This document shows positions 5,705 to 32,202 of a stretch of DNA of 64,000 nucleotides, one piece after another. This DNA comes from Gemmatimonadota bacterium. Lineage in GTDB: Bacteria; Gemmatimonadota; Gemmatimonadetes; Gemmatimonadales; GWC2-71-9. The DNA lies in the NCBI GenBank assembly GCA_031375485.1, contig JANMHX010000316.1:8186-72185 (forward strand), in the 5' to 3' direction. The notes below the pieces were generated by a model that worked only from the letters and a program-made list of their open reading frames with translations, was not told the origin of the DNA and did no database searches. Each line of letters opens with the position of its first letter. Within the stretch, counting starts at the first letter, position 1. The position numbers and the translations under genes were made by a program.

Positions 5705-6234
5705 CAGTGGCCCTCGAACTCCATCACGCAGTAGGTCGGGCAGCCGACCGCTTCGAGTCGGCGGCGCCCGCCCAGTTCCGGCAGGTCGATCGCAAACCCG
5801 GCCTCGACCACCGTCGCGCCGAGTTGGTTGAGGAGCGACAGTCCCGCGAGCGCGGTGCCTCCGGTCGCAATCAGGTCGTCGATCAGAATTACCCGGTGGC
5901 CGGTCGTCACCGCGTCCCGGTGGATTTCGACCCGGTCGGTCCCGTACTCGAGCTGATAGTCCCGGCCGATGGTGGCTGAAGGAAGCTTCCCCTTCTTCCG
6001 GATCGGCACGAACCCGGCGCCCAGCCGCTCGGCCACCGCGCCGCCCAGGATGAACCCGCGCGCCTCGATCCCCGCCACTCGGTCGATGCGCAGGGTGAGA
6101 TACCGGGACGCGAACCGGTCCACGAGCGCCCGGAATGCCGGGCCGTTTGCCATCAGAGTGGTGATGTCCCGAAACAGAATCCCGGGTTTGGGATAGTCGG
6201 GGATCGAGCGGACCAACGCCTTGAGGTCGGTCAT
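5704..6234 (-). CDS. apt: Adenine phosphoribosyltransferase
   Basis: [49 protein letters not shown] loop; start 6234 overlaps mtnP stop. Confidence 0.95.
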
Positions 6235-7088
6235 AGCACCCGCCCCGCGATCCCGCGAAGCTGCTCGACCAGCTTCGGATCCCGCGCCCCCGGGGCCGTC
6301 ATCACGGCCGTGTCGAGCGCGCGATCGCAACCGCACGGACAGGGCGTGGGCCGGGTGGCCAAGCGGGGCACTACCGTCCGGATCAGTTGCTGCGCGGCCG
6401 CGGCATTCCGGAGCAAGACCCCAACGACTTGATCGACCGTGACATGAGTGTGGTCGGGATGCCAACAGTCGTAGTCGGTCACCATCGCGATCGTCGCATA
6501 ACAGAGCTCGGCCTCACGGGCGAGCTTGGCCTCCGGCATGTTGGTCATTCCGATCACGCTCATCCCCCAGGATCGATAGAGCTCGGACTCCGCTTTCGTC
6601 GAAAACTGGGGACCTTCCATGGCCAGGTAGGTTCCGCCTCGGACGGTCGGCAGCGCCAGCTGCCGGGCGGCGCCATCGATGCAATCGCCGAGTCGGCGAC
6701 AGACCGGGTCAGCCACCGAGACATGCGCCACCAGCCCCGGGCCGAAAAAACTCTTGACCCGGGCAAAGGTCCGGTCGACGAACTGGTCGACCACCACGAA
6801 CGTGCCGGGCGGCAGATCCTCGCGGAGCGACCCGACGGCCGACAGACTCAAGACATCGGTAACGCCCAGCTGCTTTAGGGCGGCGATATTCGCGCGGAAA
6901 TTGAGATCGGAAGGCGGGATGCCGTGGCCCCGGCCATGACGTGGCAAGAAGGCCGCGGGGTGGCCACTGAGCTGTCCGACCAACACCTCATCAGAGGGCT
7001 CACCCCAGGGGGTCGTGACCCGTTTCCAGGCGGCGCCCTCCCAGCCGTCCATCTGATACAGTCCGCTGCCGCCGATGATGCCGATCAC
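6231..7088 (-). CDS. mtnP: S-methyl-5'-thioadenosine phosphorylase
   Basis: [53 protein letters not shown]; GTG start 7088 with AGGAG SD. Confidence 0.93.
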
Positions 7089-7132
7089 CCGGTTCTCCTG
7101 GCTCGGTTGTGCGTTTGGCCGTTTCGGCTTCA

Positions 7133-7138
7133 ATTGTA
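7133..7138 (-). promoter_or_regulatory. Candidate sigma70 -10 (TACAAT) for the mtnP operon
   Basis: ATTGTA on + strand, about 45 nt upstream of the mtnP start; no clear -35 (that region is the heptamer repeat). Confidence 0.5.
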
Positions 7139-7140
7139 AC

Positions 7141-7175
7141 CTCGGCACTCGGCACTCGGCACTCGGCGCTCGGCA
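7141..7175. repeat. Heptamer tandem repeat (CTCGGCA)x5
   Basis: ctcggca ctcggca ctcggca ctcggcg ctcggca, then a degenerate sixth copy ctcgtgg. Confidence 0.95.
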
Positions 7176-7240
7176 CTCGTGGTGGCGGATGCGGGGGGAT
7201 GCTGGATCAGCGATCCGAGGATGGGTCGAAGCTGCCGGCT

Positions 7241-7339
7241 TTAGCGGCTGTGGAGAAACAGTTGCAGCAACAGGTAGAGCGCCAACAAGGGGGTGATGGC
7301 TTGAGCGAGGGGACTGGAACGACGACGGGAGTAGCGCAC
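7241..7339 (-). CDS. Candidate 32-aa small membrane peptide (MRYSRRRSSPLAQAITPLLALYLLLQLFLHSR)
   Basis: GTG start 6 nt after TACGTT -10-like hexamer; basic N-terminus plus hydrophobic stretch; 24/32 codons end in G/C; may overlap the hydrolase start. Confidence 0.3.
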   Translation of the reverse strand: MRYSRRRSSPLAQAITPLLALYLLLQLFLHSR

Positions 7340-8113
7340 GGCGAGAACGTATCGCGCGGGCCGGCGGCTGGCAAGGAGCCGACGATCGTGTTCATTCATG
7401 GCGCCGGCATTTCGAGTTGGATGTGGCGGCAGCAGCTGGCCGCGCTGGTGGGGTTCAAGGGGCTGGCCGTCGAACTCCCGGGCCACGGCGCCTCGCCGGT
7501 GCCCTGGGTTTCGGTGCCGGACGCGGCCGACGCCGTGGCCAGGATCATCCGCCAGCAGGTACCCGGAGGGAAGGCGCACGTGGTCGGCCTGAGCCTTGGC
7601 GGCGTCGTGGCGCTCCAGTTGTTGGCGCAAGATCCCGACACCGTCGACCGGATGCTGGTCAGCGGCACTTTGGCCACCGGAATCGCTGGAGCCCGGGCTC
7701 TGGCCGGCCTGACGGCGCTGACGCTACCGGTCGGCAAATTCGGGCCGCTGGTCCGCCTGACCGCGAAGATGATGGCCGTTCCGCCGGCGGACTATCCGAG
7801 CCTGCAAGCGGACGTCCGGCGGCTGGAGGCCGGCCCGCTCCAACAGATGATTCTCGATGTGATGACGTTCCGGCCCCCGGCGGTCCTGGCCGAGCGACGT
7901 CACCCCGTGCTCGTGGTGGCGGGGAGCAAGGAGCACCGAAAGATCCGGGAGAGTGTCGGTCGATTGGTTGCCCTGATGCCGAACGCCCGCGGCGGGCTGA
8001 TTCCGGGAGGGGTCCACACTTGGAACTGGCAGATGCCCGATCGGTTCAACGCGCTGCTCGCCGCGTGGTGTCGGGACGGGCAGATCAGCGACTTTGTAAC
8101 AAAAAGTACTTGA
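7301..8113 (+). CDS. Alpha/beta fold hydrolase (start uncertain: TTG 7301 or GTG 7388)
   Basis: TIVFIHGAG, GLSLGG nucleophile elbow, VAGSKE, GGVHTW. Confidence 0.85.
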   Translation: MSEGTGTTTGVAHGENVSRGPAAGKEPTIVFIHGAGISSWMWRQQLAALVGFKGLAVELPGHGASPVPWVSVPDAADAVARIIRQQVPGGKAHVVGLSLGGVVALQLLAQDPDTVDRMLVSGTLATGIAGARALAGLTALTLPVGKFGPLVRLTAKMMAVPPADYPSLQADVRRLEAGPLQQMILDVMTFRPPAVLAERRHPVLVVAGSKEHRKIRESVGRLVALMPNARGGLIPGGVHTWNWQMPDRFNALLAAWCRDGQISDFVTKST

Positions 8114-8138
8114 CAATACATAAACCAGACGGTAAACT
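8110..8138 (+). promoter_or_regulatory. Near-consensus sigma70 promoter TTGACA-N17-TAAACT
   Basis: TTGACA 8110-8115, 17-nt spacer, TAAACT 8133-8138, in an AT-rich patch upstream of the 8168 gene. Confidence 0.75.
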
Positions 8139-8167
8139 GCGGCAACTCGTCCGCCGGAGTACTCCGA

Positions 8168-8584
8168 GTGTCCCCGTTAGTCCGTCTGCTCTATCCGCTG
8201 CCCGCCCGGTCCCGGACGCCGGCGACGGTCATTGGCTGGTGGGAACGCCGGCGCTTGACCTTCAATCTCGTGGTCGGAACGACGGGGCTCTTGTCGCTCG
8301 GGCTGATCAATCTGATTCTGGGACTACCGCCGCTCTCGGGCCAGGCCCCGGGCATCCCGATCCTACCGGCACTCGCCTACGGGATGCTGGCCAACCTGTT
8401 CTACTCGGCCGGCTGGGGTATTGAACTCCTCTTCAACGCCTGGTGGCGAAAGGACCCGCCCGACATCGGGCCGATCCTATTCCGCCAAGGTGTGATCTTC
8501 TCGGTGGGGTTGACTCTGCTGCCGGTGGCCCTGGCGGGATTCGTGTGGGCGGCCGGACTCGTCCGATGGGTCCTCGGATGGTAG
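8168..8584 (+). CDS. Hypothetical membrane protein (3-4 TM)
   Basis: GTG start with GGAG SD; WWERRRLTFN and ANLFYSAGWGIE patterns; hydrophobic segments. Confidence 0.7.
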   Translation: MSPLVRLLYPLPARSRTPATVIGWWERRRLTFNLVVGTTGLLSLGLINLILGLPPLSGQAPGIPILPALAYGMLANLFYSAGWGIELLFNAWWRKDPPDIGPILFRQGVIFSVGLTLLPVALAGFVWAAGLVRWVLGW

Positions 8585-21889: not shown

Positions 21890-23080
21890 ATGCGAACAGC
21901 GTTCATTACCCTCGTGGTTTTGATGGCGGGCGGCAGTACCCTGACCGACAGAACCGCCCTCGAATGGTCCGGCCCGCCCGGAAGCAGCAAGCCATTCTTG
22001 AGTCGCACCGCCAAGGGCGACCTCATCCTCAGCTGGTTCGAGCCGCGGCCGGACCACCGCTACGCCCTTCGCGCCGCAAGCCGGTCCGGCGCCACCTGGT
22101 CGGAACCGGTCACCATCGCCGAAAGCGACAAGTTCTTCGTCAACTGGGCCGACTTCCCCTCGATCACGGAAACCGCGACGGGAACCTGGCTCGTCCACTG
22201 GCTGGAAAAGACCGCGACGAAAGCCTATGCCTACCACGTGAAGCTCGCCGCGTCCAAAGACCGGGGGCGGACCTGGTCGGCACCGGTCACCGTCCACTCC
22301 GATACCTCCGCCACCGAGCACGGCTTCGTCGCGATGGTTCCGCTCGGTACCGGATCGGTCGCGGTCGCGTGGCTCGACGGCCGCCAGATGACCGACAGCG
22401 CCGGCGCCATGTCCGTCCGGACCGCGTGGTGGAATCCCGGCGGAACCGTCTCAGGGGAGACGGTCCTCGATGCCCGAAGCTGCGAGTGCTGCCAAGTCTC
22501 GATGGCCGCCGCCCGCGGTGGCTTGGTCGTGGCCTATCGGGATCGGTCAGCCGAGGAGATCCGGGACATTGCCATCGTCCGTCAGGACGGAGCCCAATGG
22601 TCCGAACCCGCCAAGGTGGCGAACGACGGGTGGGTTTCGAGACAGTGCCCCGTGAACGGCCCCTCCATCAGCGCCACCGGCGACGCGGTGGGCGTAGCCT
22701 GGTTCACCGCCGCCAATGGGCTCCCGATGGTCAAGGCCGCGTTCTCGGCCGACGGCGGTCGAACGTTCGGAAAGCCGATTCGGATCGATGAGGGTAACCC
22801 GTTGGGGCGTGTGCACTTCCAGATGACGGGCCCAGGCCGAGGCGTGGTGACATGGCTCGAGGCCGAGGGCAATCAGGCCTTCTGGCGGGTTCGCGCGGTT
22901 GGCGGGGCGGGGGCCGACCGGGAGATCGTGACGGTCGCCTCCACCAGCCGGTCGCGAGACGGTGGTTTTCCCCGAACGGTTCTGGTGGGTTCGGATCTCT
23001 TCGTGGCCTACGCCGAGCCGGCCCCGGGTACCGCCGAACCCGGACGGGTCCGGGTCACGAAAGTCAGTCTAGCCAAATAG
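21890..23080 (+). CDS. Exported BNR/Asp-box (sialidase-like beta-propeller) protein
   Basis: Asp-boxes SKDRGRTW and SADGGRTF; FFVNWADFP; SCECC and QCPVNGP motifs; signal peptide. Confidence 0.75.
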   Translation: MRTAFITLVVLMAGGSTLTDRTALEWSGPPGSSKPFLSRTAKGDLILSWFEPRPDHRYALRAASRSGATWSEPVTIAESDKFFVNWADFPSITETATGTWLVHWLEKTATKAYAYHVKLAASKDRGRTWSAPVTVHSDTSATEHGFVAMVPLGTGSVAVAWLDGRQMTDSAGAMSVRTAWWNPGGTVSGETVLDARSCECCQVSMAAARGGLVVAYRDRSAEEIRDIAIVRQDGAQWSEPAKVANDGWVSRQCPVNGPSISATGDAVGVAWFTAANGLPMVKAAFSADGGRTFGKPIRIDEGNPLGRVHFQMTGPGRGVVTWLEAEGNQAFWRVRAVGGAGADREIVTVASTSRSRDGGFPRTVLVGSDLFVAYAEPAPGTAEPGRVRVTKVSLAK

Positions 23081-23185
23081 GCGATTCGCCCTTGCCTACC
23101 CCCGTTTCGGGGTGCACCTTTTTCGGCCCAAACCGGAACCCCGTTCCGGCTGGATAACGTTCACCCCCACGGTTGAGACGGAATC

Positions 23186-25726
23186 ATGCGTTTGCTTCGT
23201 TCGGCACGAGTGCTGGCGGCGGCCCTCGCGGTCTTTGCGGCACCCACGCTCATGGCCCAGACCACGGGCACGGTTACGGGCAAGGTCAGCCGGGCGGATG
23301 ATGGCGCCGCGCTGGCTGGGGTCGTGGTCGGGGTCCGCGGACCCGGCACCACGGCCGCCACCAACACCCAAGGCCGTTACGTGCTCGAGCGGGTACCCGC
23401 CGGCACCTACACGTTGGTCTTCCGGTGGCTCGGTTACAAACCGACCGAGGTGTCCGTGACAGTCACCGCCGGCGGCAGCGTCACGGCCGACGCCAAGATG
23501 GAAGCCCATCCGATCGCCTTGAATGACTTGGTGGTCACCACCGCCTCGAAGGCCCCGGAACGGGCCACCGAAGCGCCGGCCGCCATCTCGGTCATCGACG
23601 CCCGAACCCTTCAGACCACCTCGATCACCGGGCAGGCGCCGCTCGCCTTGGCCGCGGTCCCCGGAGTTGACCTGGCCCAGAACGGCGTCAACGACTTCAA
23701 CGTCAACACCCGGGGATTCAACTCGTCGTTGAACCGCCGGGTGTTGGTGCTGATCGACGGCCGAGACGTGGCCACCGGGTTCCTGGGCAACCAAGAGTGG
23801 AATGCGCTCTCGATCCCAACCGAAGATATCGGTTCGATGGAACTCGTCCGGGGCCCCGGTTCGGCGCTCTACGGCGCCAACGCCTATGCCGGTGTACTCA
23901 ACATCAAGACCCCCTCGGCCCGTGAAGTCGTCGGCACCAAGTTGAGCGTCGGAGGCGGCGGCCTGTCGACCGCCAAGGCCGACCTCCGGCACGCGGGTCT
24001 GCTGTATGACAGCCGGTTCGGGTACCGCGTCAACGTGGGTTACTATCGAAGTGACACCTGGTCGCGGTCCCGGACGCTGGCCGACGGTAGCGCCCTCAAG
24101 ACCGAGTACGGACCCGCCACCGACTCCTTGAACTTCCGGAGCATTTGCTCGTCGTGTTCCCGGCGGGAACTCAGGGCCCTCAACGGTCAGAAGGCCGACC
24201 CGGCGACCGGGGCACTGACCGGCGACCGGGACCCGGTCAAGAGCACCTACGGATCAGCCCGACTCGATTACTACGCGGCCAACGGCGACGTGGCCACCGG
24301 TGAATTCGGGATGGCATTGGCCGAGAACGAAACCGCCGTCACCGGCATCGGCCGGGTCCAAATCACCAAGTCGATCCGGCCCTACACCCGGTTCAACTAC
24401 GCCGCGAAGGCGTTCGACGTGATGACGTATTGGAACGGCCGCAATACCGAAGAGCCGCAGTACTCGCTCGCCTCCGGCGCGGGCCTCGAGGAACGGTCCG
24501 ACATCTTCCACATCGAGGGCCAGCAGAAGAACACCTTCGCGGACGGCAAGGGTCGGTTCGTACTCGGCGGGTCCTTCCGCAATTACAGCCTCAACACCCA
24601 ACGCACGCTGATCAATCGCCCCGACGATGACCGGAGCGACAACTACTACGCCTTGTTCAGCCAGTTCGAGTACAAACTCAGCGACGTGACCAAGATCGTG
24701 GCCGCCGGCCGGTACGATCTCGGCGGTTTGATCGACGCCCAATTCTCACCCAAGGCGGCCATCGTCTACACGCCGAGCGACCGGCATTCGTTCCGGTTCA
24801 CGTTCAACAAGGCGTTCCAGACCCCGAACTATTCGGAGTTCTTCCTCAATGCCGCCGCCGGAGCGCCGGCCAACTTCTCGTTACTCGAAGCCGGTCTCCG
24901 GGCCAACCCGCAGTTAGGCCCCCTGCTGGCGGGCGTGCCGGCCGGACAGTTGTTTGACAACACTGCCGCCGTCCCGGTCCGCGCCCGGGGTAACAACAAG
25001 CTCCAAGTCGAGAAGAACACCGGCATCGAACTCGGCTATCGTGGCGATCTGACCGATCGGTTCTACTTCTCCGTCGATGCCTACTTGAACGTGCTGAAGG
25101 ACTTCGTCACCGACCTGTTGCCCGGTGTCAATCCGGCCTTTCCCGCCTGGACCGCCCCGTCCGCCGTACCGGCCCCGGCCCGGGCCGCCCTCCAAAGCGC
25201 GGTCCGAAGCGCCTTGGTCGGGAATCCGGCCACCGCCACCGCCGGCCGGGGCCTGACCCGGCAAGAGGATGGCAAAACCGCGGTCGTCGTGTCGTATGCC
25301 AACGCGGGCAAGGCTACCCAGTACGGCTTTGAGTTTGCCGCGGGCCTCCAGTTGGCCGACGAGTTCCGGGTCGACGCGAACCTGACGATCTTCCGGTTCG
25401 ACATCAACGAGCAGCTGGCCGGCGATCAGTTGCTTCCGAACACCCCAAGCTCGAAGGGGAACATCGCCGTGACGTACGCTGGCCGGAGCGGCCTCGATCT
25501 GGGCCTGAACCTCCGGGCCGTGAAGGGCTACGACTGGGCGGCCGGCGTGTTCGCGGGATGGATCGAACCCCAGGCGACGATCGACGCCAACGCCGGATTC
25601 GCGGTCAACAACAACCTCCGCGTCTACCTGGCGGCCAACAACCTCTTCGACCAGCAGCGGTACTCGATCTTCGGCGGCTCGGTCAACGGACGCCGCGTCC
25701 TCGGTGGCCTGACGACCCGATTCTAG
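23186..25726 (+). CDS. TonB-dependent receptor with N-terminal carboxypeptidase-like domain
   Basis: Signal peptide, plug NTRGFN..LVLIDGR, ELVRGPGSALYGANA, AFQTP, NNLFD, C-terminal Phe. Confidence 0.92.
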   Translation: MRLLRSARVLAAALAVFAAPTLMAQTTGTVTGKVSRADDGAALAGVVVGVRGPGTTAATNTQGRYVLERVPAGTYTLVFRWLGYKPTEVSVTVTAGGSVTADAKMEAHPIALNDLVVTTASKAPERATEAPAAISVIDARTLQTTSITGQAPLALAAVPGVDLAQNGVNDFNVNTRGFNSSLNRRVLVLIDGRDVATGFLGNQEWNALSIPTEDIGSMELVRGPGSALYGANAYAGVLNIKTPSAREVVGTKLSVGGGGLSTAKADLRHAGLLYDSRFGYRVNVGYYRSDTWSRSRTLADGSALKTEYGPATDSLNFRSICSSCSRRELRALNGQKADPATGALTGDRDPVKSTYGSARLDYYAANGDVATGEFGMALAENETAVTGIGRVQITKSIRPYTRFNYAAKAFDVMTYWNGRNTEEPQYSLASGAGLEERSDIFHIEGQQKNTFADGKGRFVLGGSFRNYSLNTQRTLINRPDDDRSDNYYALFSQFEYKLSDVTKIVAAGRYDLGGLIDAQFSPKAAIVYTPSDRHSFRFTFNKAFQTPNYSEFFLNAAAGAPANFSLLEAGLRANPQLGPLLAGVPAGQLFDNTAAVPVRARGNNKLQVEKNTGIELGYRGDLTDRFYFSVDAYLNVLKDFVTDLLPGVNPAFPAWTAPSAVPAPARAALQSAVRSALVGNPATATAGRGLTRQEDGKTAVVVSYANAGKATQYGFEFAAGLQLADEFRVDANLTIFRFDINEQLAGDQLLPNTPSSKGNIAVTYAGRSGLDLGLNLRAVKGYDWAAGVFAGWIEPQATIDANAGFAVNNNLRVYLAANNLFDQQRYSIFGGSVNGRRVLGGLTTRF

Positions 25727-25749
25727 CTCGTCGAAACACCCTCAAACCG

Positions 25750-25783
25750 AAGCGGGGCGGGCTCGATGCCCGCCCCGCTTTTT
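25750..25783 (+). terminator. Rho-independent terminator after the TonB receptor
   Basis: AAGCGGGGCGGGC-TCGAT-GCCCGCCCCGCTT then TTTCT. Confidence 0.85.
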
Positions 25784-25799
25784 CTCTTCCTTGGGTCGC

Positions 25800-26456
25800 C
25801 TACCGGCCAAACAACGCCAAGCGGACGCCAACCGTTACCCGAATATCGTTCTGGGTCAACGATTGCGAGCGGCGAAGCGCCCCTCCCTGCCCGGCCACAT
25901 CGAAGCTCGCGTTGTAGACGTAGTCCTCGGCGCTAATGGTGAGCGCGCTCCGCGACGTCATCCGAAACCCAATCGTCGCCCCGAGCACCGCCCCCAGGTT
26001 CGATCGATCCTTGACCAAACTCGGCACCCCCGACTTCTCCGTAAACCGACGGCTCACCGAAGCGATCCCGGCGTGAAACGTGATCGACGACGGCTCCGTG
26101 GTCGGTTTCATTCGATACACCAGCCGGCCGCTGATGGTCGTGACCTTGGCGTTGGTTCCCGACGGGGCACTGAGCTTCGACACTTGGAGCCCGCTCTTGC
26201 CGAGGCCGATGTCGGCCTCAACCCCGAGTTTTTCCGACAGACCAACCGCCAACCTGCCGCCCACGACCCCAAGCAGGGCCTGGGACTCAGGGTCGCGGAG
26301 CGGATCGAGCCCGGGACGAAGTAACAACTCGCGTCCAGGGCTCACCAATCCGAAGTAGGGCGTCACGGCAATGCTGATCGGACTCGGGCGCTGAGCCTCG
26401 GCCGCAGTTCCGAGGACCAGCAACGCTACCCCGACCATCGTGCGAATCGGACCCAT
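25800..26456 (-). CDS. Outer-membrane beta-barrel domain protein
   Basis: Signal peptide ..TAAEAQ, alternating amphipathic strands, aromatic near C-terminus; start uncertain. Confidence 0.6.
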   Translation of the reverse strand: MGPIRTMVGVALLVLGTAAEAQRPSPISIAVTPYFGLVSPGRELLLRPGLDPLRDPESQALLGVVGGRLAVGLSEKLGVEADIGLGKSGLQVSKLSAPSGTNAKVTTISGRLVYRMKPTTEPSSITFHAGIASVSRRFTEKSGVPSLVKDRSNLGAVLGATIGFRMTSRSALTISAEDYVYNASFDVAGQGGALRRSQSLTQNDIRVTVGVRLALFGR

Positions 26457-26539
26457 TCGGCGCAACCTCAAGTAGGTAGTTGACATGAGTTTAACCGCTT
26501 CGGGGCCGGTACGGCTATTTTCCACCCCGGTTTCCTTTC

Positions 26540-27361
26540 ATGACGCCTACCTCTTCGCCGGTCGACCCGGCCTGGCAGCCGTATCCCGGCGCCCTCGATC
26601 CGAGCATCCGCCTCTTGGTGCGACGGCGGGTCTTGAGCCCCCAGCTTCGGAACTTTCGCGACGTCATGGTCGCCTTGCCGCCTTCGTATGGCGTGACCAC
26701 GACCCGGTACCCCGTGGTGTACATGCAGGACGGCCAAAATCTGTTTGATCCCGCCACCGCGTTTGCCGGCCACTGGCAACTCACCACGGTCTTGGCCGAA
26801 CTAGCCGCCCGGGGGACCGAGGCCATCGTGATCGGGATCGCGAACCATGGCCGGAGCCGGCTCTACGAATACAGTCCGTTTCCCGATTCAGTCCGGGGCG
26901 GCGGGGGCGGCGACCGTTACCTCGCCTTCCTGGCCGAGACCCTGAAGCCGATCATCGACCGGGATTTTCGAACCAACCCCGCCCGGTCCCAGACGGCGAT
27001 CGCCGGATCCTCGATGGGCGGCCTCATCAGCCTGTATGGGCTCTACCGGTTTGCCGACGTGTTTGGCGCGGCCGGGGTCATGAGTCCGTCGCTCTGGTAT
27101 GCGGGACGGTCGATCCTCGACTACGTCGACACCTGGTCCACCCTGGCCGTCGGGCGCCTCTATCTCGACATTGGACTGCAAGAGCCGAAAGGGGCCATCT
27201 CCGACACCCGGGCCCTCCGCGACCTGCTGGCCAAACACGGACCCCAGACGGCGCCGACGATCGAGTACGTGGAAGACGCCGGGGGCATCCACGACGAAGC
27301 CACCTGGGGCCGCCGATTCAGCCGCTGTTTGCCCTTTCTGACGGGCCATACCACCCCCTGA
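26540..27361 (+). CDS. Putative esterase (alpha/beta hydrolase-fold, Fes/IroE-like)
   Basis: YPVVYMQDGQNLF, IAGSSMGG, HDEATWGRR. Confidence 0.88.
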   Translation: MTPTSSPVDPAWQPYPGALDPSIRLLVRRRVLSPQLRNFRDVMVALPPSYGVTTTRYPVVYMQDGQNLFDPATAFAGHWQLTTVLAELAARGTEAIVIGIANHGRSRLYEYSPFPDSVRGGGGGDRYLAFLAETLKPIIDRDFRTNPARSQTAIAGSSMGGLISLYGLYRFADVFGAAGVMSPSLWYAGRSILDYVDTWSTLAVGRLYLDIGLQEPKGAISDTRALRDLLAKHGPQTAPTIEYVEDAGGIHDEATWGRRFSRCLPFLTGHTTP

Positions 27362-27470
27362 CCGGCGACCGCTTCCCGCCGCTCTCCAACCCCCGTACAT
27401 TCGCAGAGTATCTGGGGAGCCGGGTGGACGCCCGGGGCCCACCCGACCCTCCGCAGGGACGTAATCCGCC

Positions 27471-28418
27471 ATGCCGTCAGATCAAAAGAAGATCGGCCTC
27501 ATCGTCGGCCGCGAATGGAGCTGGCCGCCGGCGTTCATCGAAGAAGTGGCCAGCCGCAACCAAGGCGTTGTTGCCGAGTATGTGACCCTCGGAGCGCCCC
27601 GGATGGACGCGGCGCCGGAGTATCGCGTCATCATCGACCGGATCTCCCATGAGGTGCCGTTCTACCGCACCTTCTTGAAACACGCGGCCCTCCAGGGCAC
27701 TACGGTCGTCAACAACCCGTTCATGTGGACCGCCGACGACAAGTTCTTCGGCGCCACCTTGGCGACCTCGCTCGGATTGGCCCATCCCAAAACCATGGTG
27801 CTGCCGAACAAGGAGTACGTTCCCGGTATCGTCCATTCGGAAAGTCTCCGCAATCTGCAGTTTCCGCTCGACTGGCAAGCCATTGTTGACCACGTGGGCT
27901 TGCCCTGCATCCTGAAAGACGCCCACGGCGGCGGCTGGAAAGAGGTCTATGTCTGCAAGAGCCTCGAGGAGCTGATCTACAACTACGACCGCTCCGGCCT
28001 GCTGACCATGATCGTCCAGGAATTCATCGAGTGGGACGAGTTCGTGCGGTGCCTCTGCATCGGGCAGGAAGTGATCTATCCAATCAAGTACGATCCCAAA
28101 GCCCGGAAGTACCACCCCGAACTCGATTTCCTTCCGCCCGCCCTGCATCAGCGGATCGTCGCCGATTCGCTGACCTTGGTCCGGGCGTTAGGGTACGACA
28201 TGAATTCGATCGAATGGGCCGTCAAGGACGGGATTCCCTACGCCATCGACTTCATGAATCCGGCACCCGACATGGACATCTATTCGCTGACGCCCGCCCA
28301 TTTCGAGTGGGTCGTCAAGGCCATGGCCGACATGGCCATTCGTCTGGCCAAGGCGCCGCCGGCCACGCTCCGGCCGAGTTGGGAGAATTTTCTGAAGGGA
28401 CGATCGGTTCGGCCATGA
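27471..28418 (+). CDS. RimK/glutathione synthetase-like ATP-grasp protein
   Basis: IIDRISHE, VVNNPF, ADDKFF, PCILKDAHGGGWKEVY, IVQEFI, IDFMNPAPD. Confidence 0.85.
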   Translation: MPSDQKKIGLIVGREWSWPPAFIEEVASRNQGVVAEYVTLGAPRMDAAPEYRVIIDRISHEVPFYRTFLKHAALQGTTVVNNPFMWTADDKFFGATLATSLGLAHPKTMVLPNKEYVPGIVHSESLRNLQFPLDWQAIVDHVGLPCILKDAHGGGWKEVYVCKSLEELIYNYDRSGLLTMIVQEFIEWDEFVRCLCIGQEVIYPIKYDPKARKYHPELDFLPPALHQRIVADSLTLVRALGYDMNSIEWAVKDGIPYAIDFMNPAPDMDIYSLTPAHFEWVVKAMADMAIRLAKAPPATLRPSWENFLKGRSVRP

Positions 28419-29767
28419 CCGAGGCCGCCATCGAGGCGTGGCACGAGAGCGCCACCCAACCCATCGGCGCCGAATCGGGCGAGTGGCTCAATGCCGAACT
28501 GGCCAAACGGGGCTTGATGTTCGGCGAGCGGCCCCTCTGCACGGTCATCCGTCCCCGGTTTCTGGCCCGGCCCGAGTACGATCTGATGCGCCAGCGGATC
28601 GCCGTGCTCCTCGGGGCGTTCAACACCGCCCTCGAGGCGGCGCTGGCCAATCCGGCCGTCCTCGACCAATTCCGCCTCGAAGACTGGGAACGAACCTTGG
28701 TGCTCGAGGATCCGAGGACGGACCCCTCGCCCGTGTCCCGGCTCGACGCCTTCTTCTCGCCCGATGACGGGCAGCTTCGCTTTACCGAATACAACGCCGA
28801 GACCCCGGCGGGCTCGGCCTACAACGACGCCCTGACCGATCTCTTTCTGGCGCTCCCGATGATGCGGGATTTCCGGCGCCGGTTTGCGGTGAGCCCGGTC
28901 CCGGCCCGTCATAACGTGCTCCATTCACTGCTCAAGGCGTATCAGCGATTTTCGGGCGGGCGGACCAAACCGACCATCGGAATTCTCGACTGGAAAGAGG
29001 TGCCGACGATGAGCGAGTTCCTGCTCTATCGGGACTATTTCCAGTCGGTCGGCATCCAGTGCGTCATCGGCGATCCCCGCGAAGTCGAGTATCGGGGGGG
29101 CGCTCTCTACTCGGATGGCGTCAAGATCGATCTCATTTACAAGCGGGTCCTGATCAACGAGCTCATCGCCGATGGGGGCCTCGACCACCCGATGGTGCGG
29201 GCGGTGCGAGACGGCGCCGTCTGCATGACGAACCCGTTTCGGTGTAAAATTCTCCACAAGAAGGCCAGCCTGGCGGTCCTCTCCGACGAGCGAAACGCCG
29301 GGCTGTACTCCGCGGCCGAACGAGAGGTCATTGCGGCGCATGTCCCGTGGACCCGGGTGGTGGAGGATCGAAAGACCGTGATCGACGGCCGGCCGATCGA
29401 CTTGCTGCCCTTCGTGGCCGGCAACAAGGACCGCCTCGTCCTGAAGCCGAACGACGACTACGGGGGCGCCGGCGTGGTGCTCGGTTGGGAGGTCGACGTC
29501 GCGACCTGGCAGACCGAGGTGGCCAAAGCTCTGGCGCATCCCTCCATCGTCCAGCAGCGGATCGGGCTGCCGTCCGAATCGTTCCCGAGCTTGGTCGACG
29601 GCAAGGTCGTCCTGGCCGACCGGATCGTCGACACGGCGCCGTTCTGCTTCGATGGCTCGTTTGCCGAGGGCTGCTTGACCCGCGTCTCGACCGCCTCGCT
29701 CGTGAACGTCACCGCCGGCGGCGGATCCACGGTCCCGACCTTGGTGGTCGAGCCCCGCGTTCCCTAG
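28415..29767 (+). CDS. Circularly permuted ATP-grasp amidoligase (glutathionylspermidine synthase-like fold)
   Basis: RLDAF...FTEYNAETPAG precedes LVLKPNDDYGGAGVVLG (permuted order); ends LVNVTAGGG; ATGA overlap. Confidence 0.85.
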   Translation: MTEAAIEAWHESATQPIGAESGEWLNAELAKRGLMFGERPLCTVIRPRFLARPEYDLMRQRIAVLLGAFNTALEAALANPAVLDQFRLEDWERTLVLEDPRTDPSPVSRLDAFFSPDDGQLRFTEYNAETPAGSAYNDALTDLFLALPMMRDFRRRFAVSPVPARHNVLHSLLKAYQRFSGGRTKPTIGILDWKEVPTMSEFLLYRDYFQSVGIQCVIGDPREVEYRGGALYSDGVKIDLIYKRVLINELIADGGLDHPMVRAVRDGAVCMTNPFRCKILHKKASLAVLSDERNAGLYSAAEREVIAAHVPWTRVVEDRKTVIDGRPIDLLPFVAGNKDRLVLKPNDDYGGAGVVLGWEVDVATWQTEVAKALAHPSIVQQRIGLPSESFPSLVDGKVVLADRIVDTAPFCFDGSFAEGCLTRVSTASLVNVTAGGGSTVPTLVVEPRVP

Positions 29768-29786
29768 GCCCCAAACCCGTGAAGCC

Positions 29787-30896
29787 ATGAAACCGCCAAG
29801 CCTAACGATCGGGATCGAAGAAGAGTACCAGATCATCGATCCCAAAACCCGGGAACTGCGTTCCTACATCACCGAGATCCTGAAAGAGGATTCCGTGGTG
29901 CTCGGGGAGGTCAAGCCCGAGCTTCATCAATCGATGGTCGAGGTCGGCACCAAAGTGTGCCGGACCCCGGCGGAAGCCCGGGCGGAGCTGGTCCGGCTTC
30001 GGGGACTGGTCATGGATTTGGCGGGGAAGAACGGCCTCAAAGTGGCGGCCGCCGGCAGCCATCCGTTCTCGAGCTGGATGGAGCAAGAGATCACTCCGCT
30101 CGACCGATATCTCGGCGTCAAAGAGGACCTCCAGGAATTGGCCCAGCGGCTGCTGATCTTCGGCACCCATGTCCATATCGGCATCGAAGATCGCGAGTTC
30201 TTGATCGAGGCCATGAATGCGGCCAGTTACTTCATGCCGCACCTCCTCTGCCTCTCCACCAGCTCGCCGTTCTGGCTCGGCCGAAAGACCGGCCTCAAGT
30301 CTTACCGGAGCATCGTATTTCGAAGTTTTCCCCGGACCGGGATTCCCCGGGAATTGCACTCCTGGGGCGAGTTCGAGGACATCATCAATACCTTGGTCGA
30401 AACCAAGAGTATTCCCAACGCCTCGAAGATCTGGTGGGACATCCGGCCCAGCTGGAGCTACCCGACGCTCGAGATGCGGATCTGCGATGTCTGTACCCGC
30501 GTCGACGAGGCCGTGTGTGTCGGCGCGCTGTTCCAAGCCATCATCGCCAAGGTGTACAAGCTCCGGCGCGACAACTTGAATTGGCGGAAGTATTCGGCTG
30601 CATTCATCGAGGAAAACAAGTGGCGGGCCTGCCGGTACGGGCTCGACGGCAAGTTGATCGACTTCGGCAAGGGAATCGAACTCCCGGCCCGGAGCCTGAT
30701 CCGCGAGATGATCGAGTGGTTCGTCGACGACGTCGTCGATGAGCTTGGCAGTCGGAAGGAAATCGAGTACGCCTTTCACATCCTTGAAAACGGGACCAGC
30801 GCCGACCGGCAACTGGCCACCTACGAACGAACCGGCGGCGACCTCCATGCCGTGGTCGACCAACTGATTGCCGAGACCGAAGAGGGGATTCGCTAG
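29787..30896 (+). CDS. ybdK: Carboxylate-amine ligase, YbdK/GCS2 family
   Basis: TIGIEEEYQ, ELHQSMVEVGT, GSHPF, FGTHVHIG, SSPFW, WWDIRP, TLEMRICD. Confidence 0.92.
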   Translation: MKPPSLTIGIEEEYQIIDPKTRELRSYITEILKEDSVVLGEVKPELHQSMVEVGTKVCRTPAEARAELVRLRGLVMDLAGKNGLKVAAAGSHPFSSWMEQEITPLDRYLGVKEDLQELAQRLLIFGTHVHIGIEDREFLIEAMNAASYFMPHLLCLSTSSPFWLGRKTGLKSYRSIVFRSFPRTGIPRELHSWGEFEDIINTLVETKSIPNASKIWWDIRPSWSYPTLEMRICDVCTRVDEAVCVGALFQAIIAKVYKLRRDNLNWRKYSAAFIEENKWRACRYGLDGKLIDFGKGIELPARSLIREMIEWFVDDVVDELGSRKEIEYAFHILENGTSADRQLATYERTGGDLHAVVDQLIAETEEGIR

Positions 30897-30936
30897 TGCT
30901 GGCCCGTCCCTTGCTGCCAGATTGGATCAAGCCACT

Positions 30937-31707
30937 ATGAAGAAACTCGACCGGCGCCCCATCATCGGGGTCACGACCCAGACGCTCCACTCGATCGACG
31001 GCATCCCCGAGGGACTGCCTCAGTCGGTGGTCATGAACCAGCGCTACTACGTCGCGGTCGCCTTGGTAGGGGCGGCGCCGATCTTGATCCCGCTGCTCGA
31101 CGACGAACCCGAGGCCCTCCGGGCCGTCTACGAGGCCTGCGACGGTATCATGATTCCGGGCGGCGTCGATATGGACCCCGAACGTTTCGGCGAGGAGCCC
31201 CACGCCAAACTCGGCCGAATCGATCCGGCCCGCGACCGGGTGGAACTCCAACTGACCGAGTGGGCCGTCGAGGACAAACGCCCGCTCCTCGGCCTCTGCC
31301 GGGGTCTCCAAGTCATCAATGTCGCGCTCGGCGGGACCCTCTATCAGGATCTCGACGACCAGTATCCGAACGCCATCAAGCACGACTACTTTCCGACCTA
31401 CGGCTTCGAGCGCGATCACCTCGCCCACGACGTGACCTTGACCCGGGGATCGCGCCTCCGGCACTTGTATGAGAAGGACCGAATTCCCGTCAACAGCATG
31501 CACCACCAAGGGATCAAGACTCTGGCCCCGAGCCTCGTGGCAAGCGCCGTGGCCCCGGACGGTTTGATCGAAGCGGCGGAATCGACCAACGACCACTTCC
31601 TCGTCGGCGTCCAGTGGCACCCCGAGGTCTTCGAACTGTCGGATCCCAACACCCGGCACGTGTTCCGGGAGTTCATCAACGCCGCGGCGGCCTTCCGCAA
31701 TACCTAA
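30937..31707 (+). CDS. Gamma-glutamyl-gamma-aminobutyrate hydrolase family (peptidase C26, PuuD-like)
   Basis: PGGVDMDP, LGLCRGLQVINVALGGTLYQD, VNSMHHQ, GVQWHPE Cys-His-Glu triad. Confidence 0.9.
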   Translation: MKKLDRRPIIGVTTQTLHSIDGIPEGLPQSVVMNQRYYVAVALVGAAPILIPLLDDEPEALRAVYEACDGIMIPGGVDMDPERFGEEPHAKLGRIDPARDRVELQLTEWAVEDKRPLLGLCRGLQVINVALGGTLYQDLDDQYPNAIKHDYFPTYGFERDHLAHDVTLTRGSRLRHLYEKDRIPVNSMHHQGIKTLAPSLVASAVAPDGLIEAAESTNDHFLVGVQWHPEVFELSDPNTRHVFREFINAAAAFRNT

Positions 31708-31755: not shown

Positions 31756-32202
31756 ATGCCCACATCTTTCTCGCGTCTTGCATTCATCGGAGCCCTCGGC
31801 CTAACGGTCCAGGGCCGGATCCCGCCGGCCACCGCGCAGAGTTCTGCAGCCCTGGCCATGACGACCGTGAGCCGGCCGCTGGTCGAGTACCTCAGAAACG
31901 AAAGCGGCGGCCGGGTCAAGGTCTCCGCGCTGACGGCCGATTCCGTTGCCATCGAAGCTGTTAGGCTGGAGTTGCTGGAGAGCGCCGCGGCGATCCGCCG
32001 GGGCGACTTTCAGAGTATCAGGATCTTTCGGAACGACCTGCCGGCCGTGCAGGTTCTTGCTCGGCTCCGTGCCGTCATTCGATGCACGGTCCGGATTCAG
32101 TCCCGCGGGGGCGAGCTCGTCCTGTTGAGCGACGACAACGGAGCCGTCGCCGCCATCCATCAACTGCTGGCCGGCGAGCCGCCCGGGCGGGTCCGACTCT
32201 AG
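31756..32202 (+). CDS. Hypothetical exported protein
   Basis: Signal-like N-terminus ..PATAQ; ORF fills the gap between C26 and crcB. Confidence 0.6.
   Translation: MPTSFSRLAFIGALGLTVQGRIPPATAQSSAALAMTTVSRPLVEYLRNESGGRVKVSALTADSVAIEAVRLELLESAAAIRRGDFQSIRIFRNDLPAVQVLARLRAVIRCTVRIQSRGGELVLLSDDNGAVAAIHQLLAGEPPGRVRL

Follow-up and report, generated by a model that had tools for sequence, protein, structure and literature searches.

A conserved cassette of amide-bond ligases and hydrolases in Gemmatimonadota and other phyla, a candidate pathway for a small gamma-glutamyl-primed peptide

Introduction

What does a bacterium make when it carries three different amide-bond ligases side by side with two hydrolases? 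The question is raised by a stretch of 64,000 nucleotides (hereafter the window, meaning this whole stretch) from a soil-type Gemmatimonadota metagenome-assembled genome (MAG), taken from positions 8,186 to 72,185 of contig JANMHX010000316.1 in assembly GCA_031375485.1, with a GC content of about 65% (working labels: genome G000, contig C373). Five co-oriented open reading frames (ORFs) on the plus strand fill positions 26540-31707 of this window and encode, in order, an esterase, a RimK-fold ATP-grasp ligase, a circularly permuted ATP-grasp ligase, a YbdK/GCS2-type carboxylate-amine ligase and a C26-type gamma-glutamyl hydrolase. On reading the sequence alone, the original prediction had taken this array for a system that makes and breaks a gamma-glutamyl metabolite. 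Here we report that the same gene order is repeated in about 100 loci of Gemmatimonadota, Chloroflexota and Rhodothermota, an arrangement that is far from chance, and that the genes behave as one functional unit, inherited together across several phyla. The reading that we favour, at somewhat better than even odds, is a cytoplasmic pathway, independent of ribosomes and of non-ribosomal peptide synthetases, for a small oligopeptide primed with a gamma-glutamyl bond and accompanied by bond-specific hydrolases.

Gene organization and conservation of the cassette

The ORFs and their translations were inspected, and the five genes (hereafter, with their homologous arrays elsewhere, the cassette) are as follows.

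26540..27361, plus strand: EST1 esterase, 273 amino acids (aa) (PF00756, E 1.5e-30; GSSMGG nucleophile motif)
27471..28418, plus strand: RimK-fold ATP-grasp ligase, 315 aa (Foldseek search with an AlphaFold2 model; RimK profile scores below cut-off)
28415..29767, plus strand: circularly permuted ATP-grasp ligase, 450 aa (fold match; PF14403, 22.4 bits)
29787..30896, plus strand: YbdK/GCS2 carboxylate-amine ligase, 369 aa (PF04107, 182 bits; NF010039, 527 bits)
30937..31707, plus strand: peptidase C26, a class-I glutamine-amidotransferase-like gamma-glutamyl hydrolase, 256 aa (PF07722, 211 bits)

The sequence itself shows that the RimK-like and permuted ligase genes share an ATGA overlap at 28415-28418, through which the second is translationally coupled to the first, and a gap of 19 nucleotides (nt) at 29768-29786 separates the permuted ligase gene from that of GCS2; the spacer between EST1 and the RimK-like gene is 109 nt. 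The Cys-His-Glu triad of C26 is intact (GLCRG and QWHPE in the translation), and the array itself stands as first described. A scan for promoters and terminators detected no signal of either kind above shuffle level inside the cassette, and an Rfam scan found no family in or around the operon, the only match (Guanidine-II) being dismissed as sub-threshold and inside a coding region. Judged by eye from the translations, none of the five N-termini resembles a signal peptide. As to the start of C26, the ORF is open from a TTG at 30868, and the ATG at 30937 (MKKLDRRP...), 40 nt past the GCS2 stop, is the first in-frame ATG; homologues align to the 256-aa form from about residue 4-8 and none reaches the TTG-ATG stretch, which makes the ATG the more likely start.

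Loci for comparison came from a sample of the phylum (19 loci) and a scan of species-representative genomes (80 loci), and all their ORFs were clustered. A sixth family emerges as a regular member: EST2, a distinct 239-aa PF00756-like esterase, which lies directly upstream of the ATP-grasp pair in most loci. The synteny tallies, made only where the flank was long enough and with a few genomes counted twice, are as follows.

RimK-like gene adjacent to permuted ligase gene: Gemmatimonadota 67/67; Chloroflexota 22/22
EST2 at the locus: Gemmatimonadota 54/63; Chloroflexota 17/19
GCS2 at the locus: Gemmatimonadota 65/66; Chloroflexota 10/22
C26 at the locus: Gemmatimonadota 58/60; Chloroflexota 0/20
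EST1 at the locus: Gemmatimonadota 25/39; Chloroflexota 1/12

The cassette proteins are 55-75% identical across phyla. In the window, the RimK-like and permuted ligase genes lie side by side in one orientation and precede GCS2 and C26, with the order and coupling seen in 58-67 Gemmatimonadota loci; the EST2 gene is absent from its usual place directly upstream of the RimK-like gene. In one locus (L032; G045:C2:196700-212100), the permuted ligase and GCS2 genes, at 5850-8339, are each recovered as two overlapping or truncated tblastn pieces, which suggests frameshifts or decay of the cassette, or else sequencing errors.

Presence and absence were scored in a fixed sample of 121 Gemmatimonadota genomes, of which 29 (24%) carry the permuted ligase and were counted as cassette-bearing, leaving 92 cassette-less. 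Three families are found in every cassette-bearing genome: GCS2 (orthologues of at least 59% identity), C26 (at least 50% identity; the copy in genome G119 is partial, at a contig end) and EST2, which occur in only 4, 1 and 3 of the 92 others, respectively. EST1 orthologues follow the same trend less strictly (23/29 against 2/92), and orthologues of a further ligase, of the ATP-grasp_4 family, are confined to cassette-bearing genomes (4/29, G000 included, against 0/92). Fisher p values for co-occurrence, calculated with relatedness among the genomes ignored, range from 3e-3 to 4e-27. Because the genes are both syntenic and phyletically co-distributed, the objection that they are not conserved together, which would have undone the original prediction, fails. 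Mirror-tree (Mantel) correlations among the six families are all positive (r 0.46-0.66, with no housekeeping control) but carry little weight, since they show no more than shared descent.

Core, accessory and dispersed genes

The core of the cassette is EST2 with the RimK-like and permuted ligases, GCS2 and C26 being accessory. The five-gene system of the original prediction is a real unit, but one drawn too small, in that it also takes in EST2 and an ATP-grasp_4 ligase; likewise, the esterase was rightly counted as a member, but the copy in the window, EST1, is the peripheral one and the invariant partner is EST2. EST1 scores 107 bits against PF00756 (gathering score 22) and reaches no NCBIfam equivalog (enterochelin esterase, feruloyl esterase); its nearest solved structures by sequence are siderophore esterases of the IroE/BesA type and CE1 feruloyl esterases (E 1e-13 to 1e-10). 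It is a cytoplasmic serine alpha/beta-hydrolase and a looser partner of the system, and its position and orientation relative to the ligases differ among loci.

Genomes in which EST2 does not adjoin the cassette have a copy of it at another place. The only EST2-family gene of G000 encodes a divergent paralogue of 254 aa, EST2b (C390:1261-2025), and stands alone beside dcd, the dCTP deaminase gene; the protein is 71% identical to a cassette-linked EST2b of another Gemmatimonadota genome (L017). This EST2b probably supplies in trans the core hydrolase that the cassette locus lacks. The layout with no EST2 at the locus is common to the window and its closest relatives (L034-L036 and L038), which therefore carry a trimmed form of the cassette. 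The fourth ligase of G000 is an ATP-grasp_4 protein, similar to L-amino-acid ligases, encoded beside uvrA at C289:2678-3925 and 53% identical to a cassette-linked copy in a Rhodothermota-type genome (L119). With EST2b and the ATP-grasp_4 ligase on other contigs, the system is larger than the five genes of the window.

Some loci are extended. ATP-grasp_4 genes, often doubled, are added in a minority of them, and two loci from Rhodothermota/Bacteroidota-type MAGs carry an M19 dipeptidase and EST1 together on one strand (with ATP-grasp_4 as well in L119), divergent from EST2, the RimK-like and permuted ligases and GCS2; C26 is present in L119 only. The M19 dipeptidase is linked to the cassette in no Gemmatimonadota or Chloroflexota locus.

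The proposed pathway

The proposed pathway starts from what is observed: gene content, folds, conserved catalytic residues, synteny and co-distribution. No gene for a precursor peptide, a carrier protein or a transporter belongs to the conserved part of the cassette, and since, in addition, the proteins have no obvious signal peptides and the ligases stay constant while the hydrolases vary, an intracellular, ribosome-independent pathway is the best reading. The change of hydrolases (C26, M19, EST1, EST2) with phylum, around ligases that remain, is the pattern expected for synthesis and turnover of a small peptide.

The order of the reactions, their substrates and the roles of the hydrolases are taken from the chemistry of the families. 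The three ligases would work in series, each through acyl-phosphate intermediates. GCS2 would join an amino acid or amine to glutamate by a gamma-glutamyl amide bond; the permuted ATP-grasp ligase, of glutathione-synthetase/GspS fold, would extend the free carboxylate by a further amino acid or amine; and the RimK-fold ligase would then add one or several alpha-linked residues, probably acidic ones. In some genomes, including G000, the unlinked ATP-grasp_4 ligase would add a further bond. C26 would cleave the gamma-glutamyl amide and the PF00756 serine hydrolases (EST1 in the window and EST2b on C390) the remaining bonds, either for turnover or for removing glutamate used as a transient protecting group. 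Priming by GCS2 followed by extension, as originally proposed, fits the fold of the permuted ligase, whose nearest relatives in structure are eukaryotic glutathione synthetases; the proposed reversible make-and-break cycle keeps its place as one option only, as C26 could equally well remove a transient gamma-glutamyl protecting group.

A more specific version of this pathway is put forward tentatively, as possible and no better than that: the product may be a new cytoplasmic metabolite in part of the Gemmatimonadota, Chloroflexota and Rhodothermota, namely a gamma-glutamyl-primed oligopeptide, possibly with an oligo-acidic tail built by the RimK-fold ligase, with its own co-inherited hydrolase for each bond (C26, EST1, EST2), whose role would be that of a fast-turnover buffer or store (in nitrogen supply, osmotic balance or metal binding, for instance) and not that of the main redox thiol.

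The two ATP-grasp ligases and the possibility of a protein substrate

Of the family assignments in the original prediction, those of GCS2 and C26 are borne out by profile hidden Markov model (HMM) scores above cut-off, whereas the two ATP-grasp proteins fall below the cut-offs of the RimK and CP_ATPgrasp_2 models and are placed by their folds. AlphaFold2 models, both of them confident, were built on alignments of 34 (permuted ligase) and 30 (RimK-like ligase) orthologues. The 315-aa RimK-like ligase scores 19.5 bits against PF08443 (gathering score 21) and 40.7 against TIGR00768 (cut-off 143.4). Its model has a predicted local distance difference test (pLDDT) value of 84.5, and the best Foldseek matches are RimK (7qyr and 5zk6, the complex with RpsF included; template modelling (TM) scores 0.65-0.73), with 16-18% identity in structural alignment, followed by D-Ala-D-Ala ligases (Ddl) and ArgX/LysX. 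Conserved residues comprise K149, an HGGGW loop, a QEF hinge, E248, D260 and N263; K149, the Gly loop, E248, D260 and N263 are invariant in the 30 RimK-like sequences and align to Ddl motifs.

The permuted ligase scores 22.4 bits against CP_ATPgrasp_2 (PF14403; gathering score 32), a precomputed match to which is carried by many of its homologues, including most close ones, and it matches structure 3n6x by sequence (E 7e-7). Its model (pLDDT 93.9; predicted TM score, pTM, 0.92) finds human, yeast and plant glutathione and homoglutathione synthetases as top Foldseek matches (TM 0.63-0.70), then 3n6x, the E-64 ligase Cp1B, E. coli GspS, YjfC, YgiC and trypanothione synthetase; of these, Cp1B is a permuted ATP-grasp enzyme that joins a dicarboxylic acid to an amino acid (PMC12568646). 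The likeness to glutathione synthetases is one of fold only: there is no GSH_synth_ATP or GSP_synth Pfam match at E 0.01 or better, and a profile search of the PDB returned no glutathione synthetase chain. Invariant motifs include E125-Y-N-x-E129 and K344-x2-D-x-Y-G-G-x-G. Because the ATP- and Mg-binding residues of both ATP-grasp proteins are invariant across phyla, both are probably active enzymes.

Side observations touch each of these families. G000 encodes a second permuted ATP-grasp-like protein, of 487 aa (C297:31733-32920; locus L033:6998-8461, minus strand), with 33-34% identity to that of the window; its gene diverges from one for an M32 (Taq-type) carboxypeptidase, and neither alpha-E nor transglutaminase genes adjoin it. 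A 609-aa protein (P0083) considered as a Rosetta-stone fusion was rejected: its N-terminus is internally duplicated and looks like an assembly artefact. RimK-fold orthologues from some Rhodothermota/Bacteroidota-type, Longimicrobiales and Chloroflexia genomes end in a low-complexity C-terminal tail (L119:7038-8339, L120:7778-8836, L056 at about 1650-2890 and L104 at about 5892-7050), which the window protein does not have. In L119 and L120 the tails are Lys/Ala/Thr-rich, with AAKK-type repeats, and about 40-130 aa long (that of L119 has a weak Pfam HC2 match); those of L056 and L104 are basic and less regular. Such tails may serve to bind a polyanion, be it the product itself or a nucleic acid.

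RimK acts on ribosomal protein S6, and LysX/ArgX on LysW, and the alternative that survives best takes these nearest structures at their word: the RimK-fold ligase, perhaps with the permuted one, would tail a cellular protein with amino acids, at its C-terminus or on a side chain, and the serine hydrolases and C26 would be the erasers. We consider this unlikely, although a RimK-like ligase so unusually conserved across phyla (mean column identity 73%) would suit a protein target, as would the Lys/Ala-rich basic tails of some orthologues, and a ligase is encoded with its eraser in the Pseudomonas rimABK operon. Within the cassette or next to it, however, about 100 loci show no conserved gene for a candidate substrate or carrier protein; GCS2 and ATP-grasp_4 are partners typical of free small-molecule chemistry; and RimK-fold enzymes that make free dipeptides or extend cofactors, and thus act on free metabolites, are documented in the thioglutine ligase TgiB (PMC13674229) and the methylofuran glutamate ligase MyfB (PMC8141765). 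The window ligase shares the fold and catalytic motifs of RimK, LysX, ArgX, TgiB and MyfB but has no NHISS, S6-related or LysW-like partner. Identity with the thiohistidine-dipeptide cluster (PMC13674229) was likewise rejected, since that cluster requires the NHISS enzyme, which is absent here.

GCS2, C26 and the possibility of a gamma-glutamyl handle

GCS2 lies far above the gathering score of PF04107 (21) and the cut-off of the NF010039 'carboxylate-amine ligase' model (371), and matches the YbdK structure 1r8g over residues 6-357 (E 7e-48). It stays under all the glutamate--cysteine ligase equivalogs (NF010043, NF010042, NF010044 and NF010045), the best being NF010043 with 360.6 bits against 409. 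C26, well above the PF07722 gathering score of 20.5, has Lin1909 (3fij), PuuD (6vtv) and 7d4r as its nearest structures by sequence; with 126.7 bits it does not reach the cut-off of the PuuD equivalog NF008471 (266). A separate C26 paralogue, with 36-45% identity, is widespread in the 121-genome sample.

An orthologue of GCS2 (59-60% identical) occurs by itself in the four cassette-less Gemmatimonadota genomes that have it (G058, G082, G117 and G100; loci L115-L118), with no other cassette ligase within 8 kb and no conserved neighbour. Three of these four genomes also have an unlinked EST2-like gene, which hints at a minimal subset of GCS2 plus esterase.

GCS2 shares the glutamine-synthetase fold with gamma-glutamylating ligases of the PuuA type, and the pairing of such a ligase with a C26 gamma-glutamyl hydrolase is common to the cassette and to PuuA/PuuD. 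By the logic of the Puu, Ipu and Egt pathways, GCS2 might glutamylate an amine or amino acid, other enzymes would modify or extend the compound and C26 would finally deglutamylate it, so that a compound is processed or detoxified and no peptide is stored. GCS2 and C26 do travel together in Gemmatimonadota (29/29 each), and PuuD is both the nearest named NCBIfam model for C26 (127 bits) and among its solved relatives. This alternative is nevertheless decidedly unlikely: GCS2 is not PuuA, C26 remains far under the PuuD cut-off, GCS2 occurs without C26 in Chloroflexota, the genes conserved with the cassette include no oxidase, dehydrogenase or aminotransferase (nor are oxidoreductases of the PuuB/PuuC type linked to it), and a catabolic handle needs no three further ligases.

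The redox-thiol question

The original prediction had allowed for a redox thiol as the product, and the fold of the permuted ligase invites the thought: GCS2 would be a gamma-glutamylcysteine ligase and the permuted ligase an analogue of glutathione synthetase. Bona fide gamma-glutamylcysteine ligases do fall within the GCS2 family (the window protein scores 361 bits against NF010043), an M19 dipeptidase, of the family of Cys-Gly dipeptidase, is linked to the cassette in the two Rhodothermota/Bacteroidota-type MAG loci, and canonical GshB is missing from G000 (no match) and strong in just 3 of the 121 genomes (E 1e-50 or better), its other matches being weak and RimK-like in look. Because GshB is nearly absent from the whole phylum, however, its complementarity with the cassette is uninformative. 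Of the 121 genomes, 113 encode BshC, the signature enzyme of bacillithiol synthesis, among them all 29 cassette-bearing ones (in G000 on contig C207, E 6e-61), so that these lineages already have a thiol system; GST_N_3 domains are limited to 4 of the 121, not including G000. Further, the cassette is confined to 24% of the phylum, GCS2 is above cut-off only for the generic carboxylate-amine ligase model, and the permuted ligase is about 13% identical to glutathione synthetase. The redox-thiol proposal is weakened by the ubiquity of BshC in cassette genomes and the near absence of GshB and glutathione S-transferases from the phylum, and a glutathione-like thiol is in our view improbable. The data speak against the cassette as a source of glutathione or of 'the missing thiol', and the product is probably neither glutathione nor the principal low-molecular-weight thiol of the lineage; a second, specialised thiol would be compatible with them.

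C26 is also the family of folyl-poly-gamma-glutamate hydrolase. Remodelling of an oligo-glutamate tail on a folate-, F420- or methylofuran-like cofactor, in which the RimK-fold ligase and GCS2 would add glutamates and C26 trim the gamma-linked ones, has precedents in the RimK-fold CofF, MptN and MyfB, which extend cofactor tails (PMC8141765), and basic tails on some RimK-fold orthologues would suit a polyanionic product, but it is very improbable, given that no cofactor-biosynthesis gene is linked in any examined locus, that presence in 24% of a phylum is oddly patchy for a core cofactor, and that known tail chemistry has no role for two esterases and a glutathione-synthetase-fold ligase.

Weighing the proposed pathway and comparing it with known systems

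Several points weigh against the gamma-glutamyl-primed oligopeptide pathway that we favour. Every specificity in it is assigned by analogy, and the structural matches of the permuted ligase put it at just 12-19% identity to any characterised enzyme. Because GCS2 is missing in cis from about half of the Chloroflexota loci, and C26 from all of them, the 'gamma-glutamyl' part may be a lineage-specific add-on, with the essence of the system lying elsewhere; and because four Gemmatimonadota genomes keep GCS2 alone, this ligase has a stand-alone role as well. GCS2 and the RimK-fold ligase are the most constrained families (mean pairwise distances 0.27-0.32 across phyla), and the Lys/Ala-rich tails of some RimK-fold orthologues are histone-H1-like; these observations would also fit a macromolecular or polyanionic substrate. 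Finally, the Fisher p values given above are inflated, since related genomes are not independent.

Among known systems, the series from glutathione to GspS and TryS offers a close parallel in logic: there, too, ATP-grasp ligases come after a ligase of glutamine-synthetase fold and lengthen a small peptide via acyl-phosphates, the circularly permuted ATP-grasp fold of eukaryotic glutathione synthetase and GspS is that of the permuted ligase in the window, and GspS has a dedicated amidase partner. The cassette differs in its additional RimK-fold ligase, its two serine hydrolases and the low identities just mentioned, as well as in a host lineage that has BshC and in which glutathione S-transferases are found in those few genomes only. 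Iyer, Abhiman, Burroughs and Aravind, writing in 2009 (Mol Biosyst 5:1636), reportedly described amidoligase neighbourhoods around permuted ATP-grasp proteins (CP_ATPgrasp_1/2) and predicted that they make peptides or peptide tags. These neighbourhoods are said to combine, as the cassette does, a permuted ATP-grasp with other amidoligases (COOH-NH2 ligase) and hydrolases, and their variants to include alpha-E, transglutaminase and the Anbu proteasome-like subunit; the window cassette is without these partners, and its permuted ligase is accompanied instead by the RimK-fold ligase, GCS2, C26 and PF00756 esterases. Pfam scans of the neighbours within about 5 kb showed no alpha-E or transglutaminase gene, in agreement with the original prediction. 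An Anbu-type example, PP_2685-PP_2688 of P. putida, is induced on nitrate as against ammonium as nitrogen source (PMC8050072). Literature searches (by Pfam name, COOH-NH2 ligase, and YbdK with ATP-grasp) found no study of the cassette and no characterised product for this combination, as had been supposed. The cassette is an uncharacterised variant of multi-amidoligase pathways, and the window holds one more, slightly trimmed instance of it, not a new system.

Neighbouring genes

Two features adjoin the cassette on its left side.

25749..25781, plus strand: strong intrinsic terminator (14-bp stem with 11 G-C pairs, then a T run), which ends the upstream TonB-dependent receptor gene
25800-26525, minus strand: divergent outer-membrane beta-barrel gene (Pfam)

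The terminator is the left boundary of the cassette transcription unit. Genes for a BNR propeller, the TonB-dependent receptor and the beta-barrel protein occupy 21890-26525 upstream of EST1, and the same order is repeated in several Gemmatimonadales loci (L034, L036-L038 and L107); because the receptor gene has its own strong terminator, this block looks like lineage synteny outside the ligase system. On the right, 48 nt after C26, an ORF of 148 aa (31756-32202) has a signal-peptide-like N-terminus and no Pfam match, and is kept only in close relatives (L034-L037 and L040). In several other Gemmatimonadota (L022, L030, L032, L078 and L085), genes for GH57 glycoside hydrolases and branching enzymes lie beside C26, and L030 and L085 have, at a greater distance, a gene resembling that of glycogen synthase; glycogen genes were judged to be coincidental, lineage-specific synteny and not part of the cassette.

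Conclusions

Glutathione, trypanothione and the tails of cofactors are examples of central metabolites that arise from multi-ligase pathways of this kind, and here is a strongly conserved cassette, present in hundreds of public genomes, to which no product has been assigned. What is new in the present analysis is the peripheral place of EST1, the location of EST2b and a fourth ligase on other contigs, the glutathione-synthetase-like fold of the permuted ligase and the weakening of the thiol reading; the window itself adds no unique feature beyond its dispersed layout. The search for the product is narrowed, in that this product is unlikely to be glutathione or the principal thiol and that, wherever the ligases occur, an EST2-type hydrolase is needed as well. 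The cassette is also present in cultured relatives with complete genomes, which could be used for genetics; in genome G067, complete in a single contig of 4,636,964 bp, the order is RimK-like ligase, permuted ligase, C26 and GCS2. The identity of the product would give functions to four families of orphan enzymes—a glutathione-synthetase-fold bacterial ligase, a divergent RimK-fold ligase, a YbdK subfamily and two esterase subfamilies—and would add a class of small molecules to the physiology of abundant but poorly studied soil phyla.

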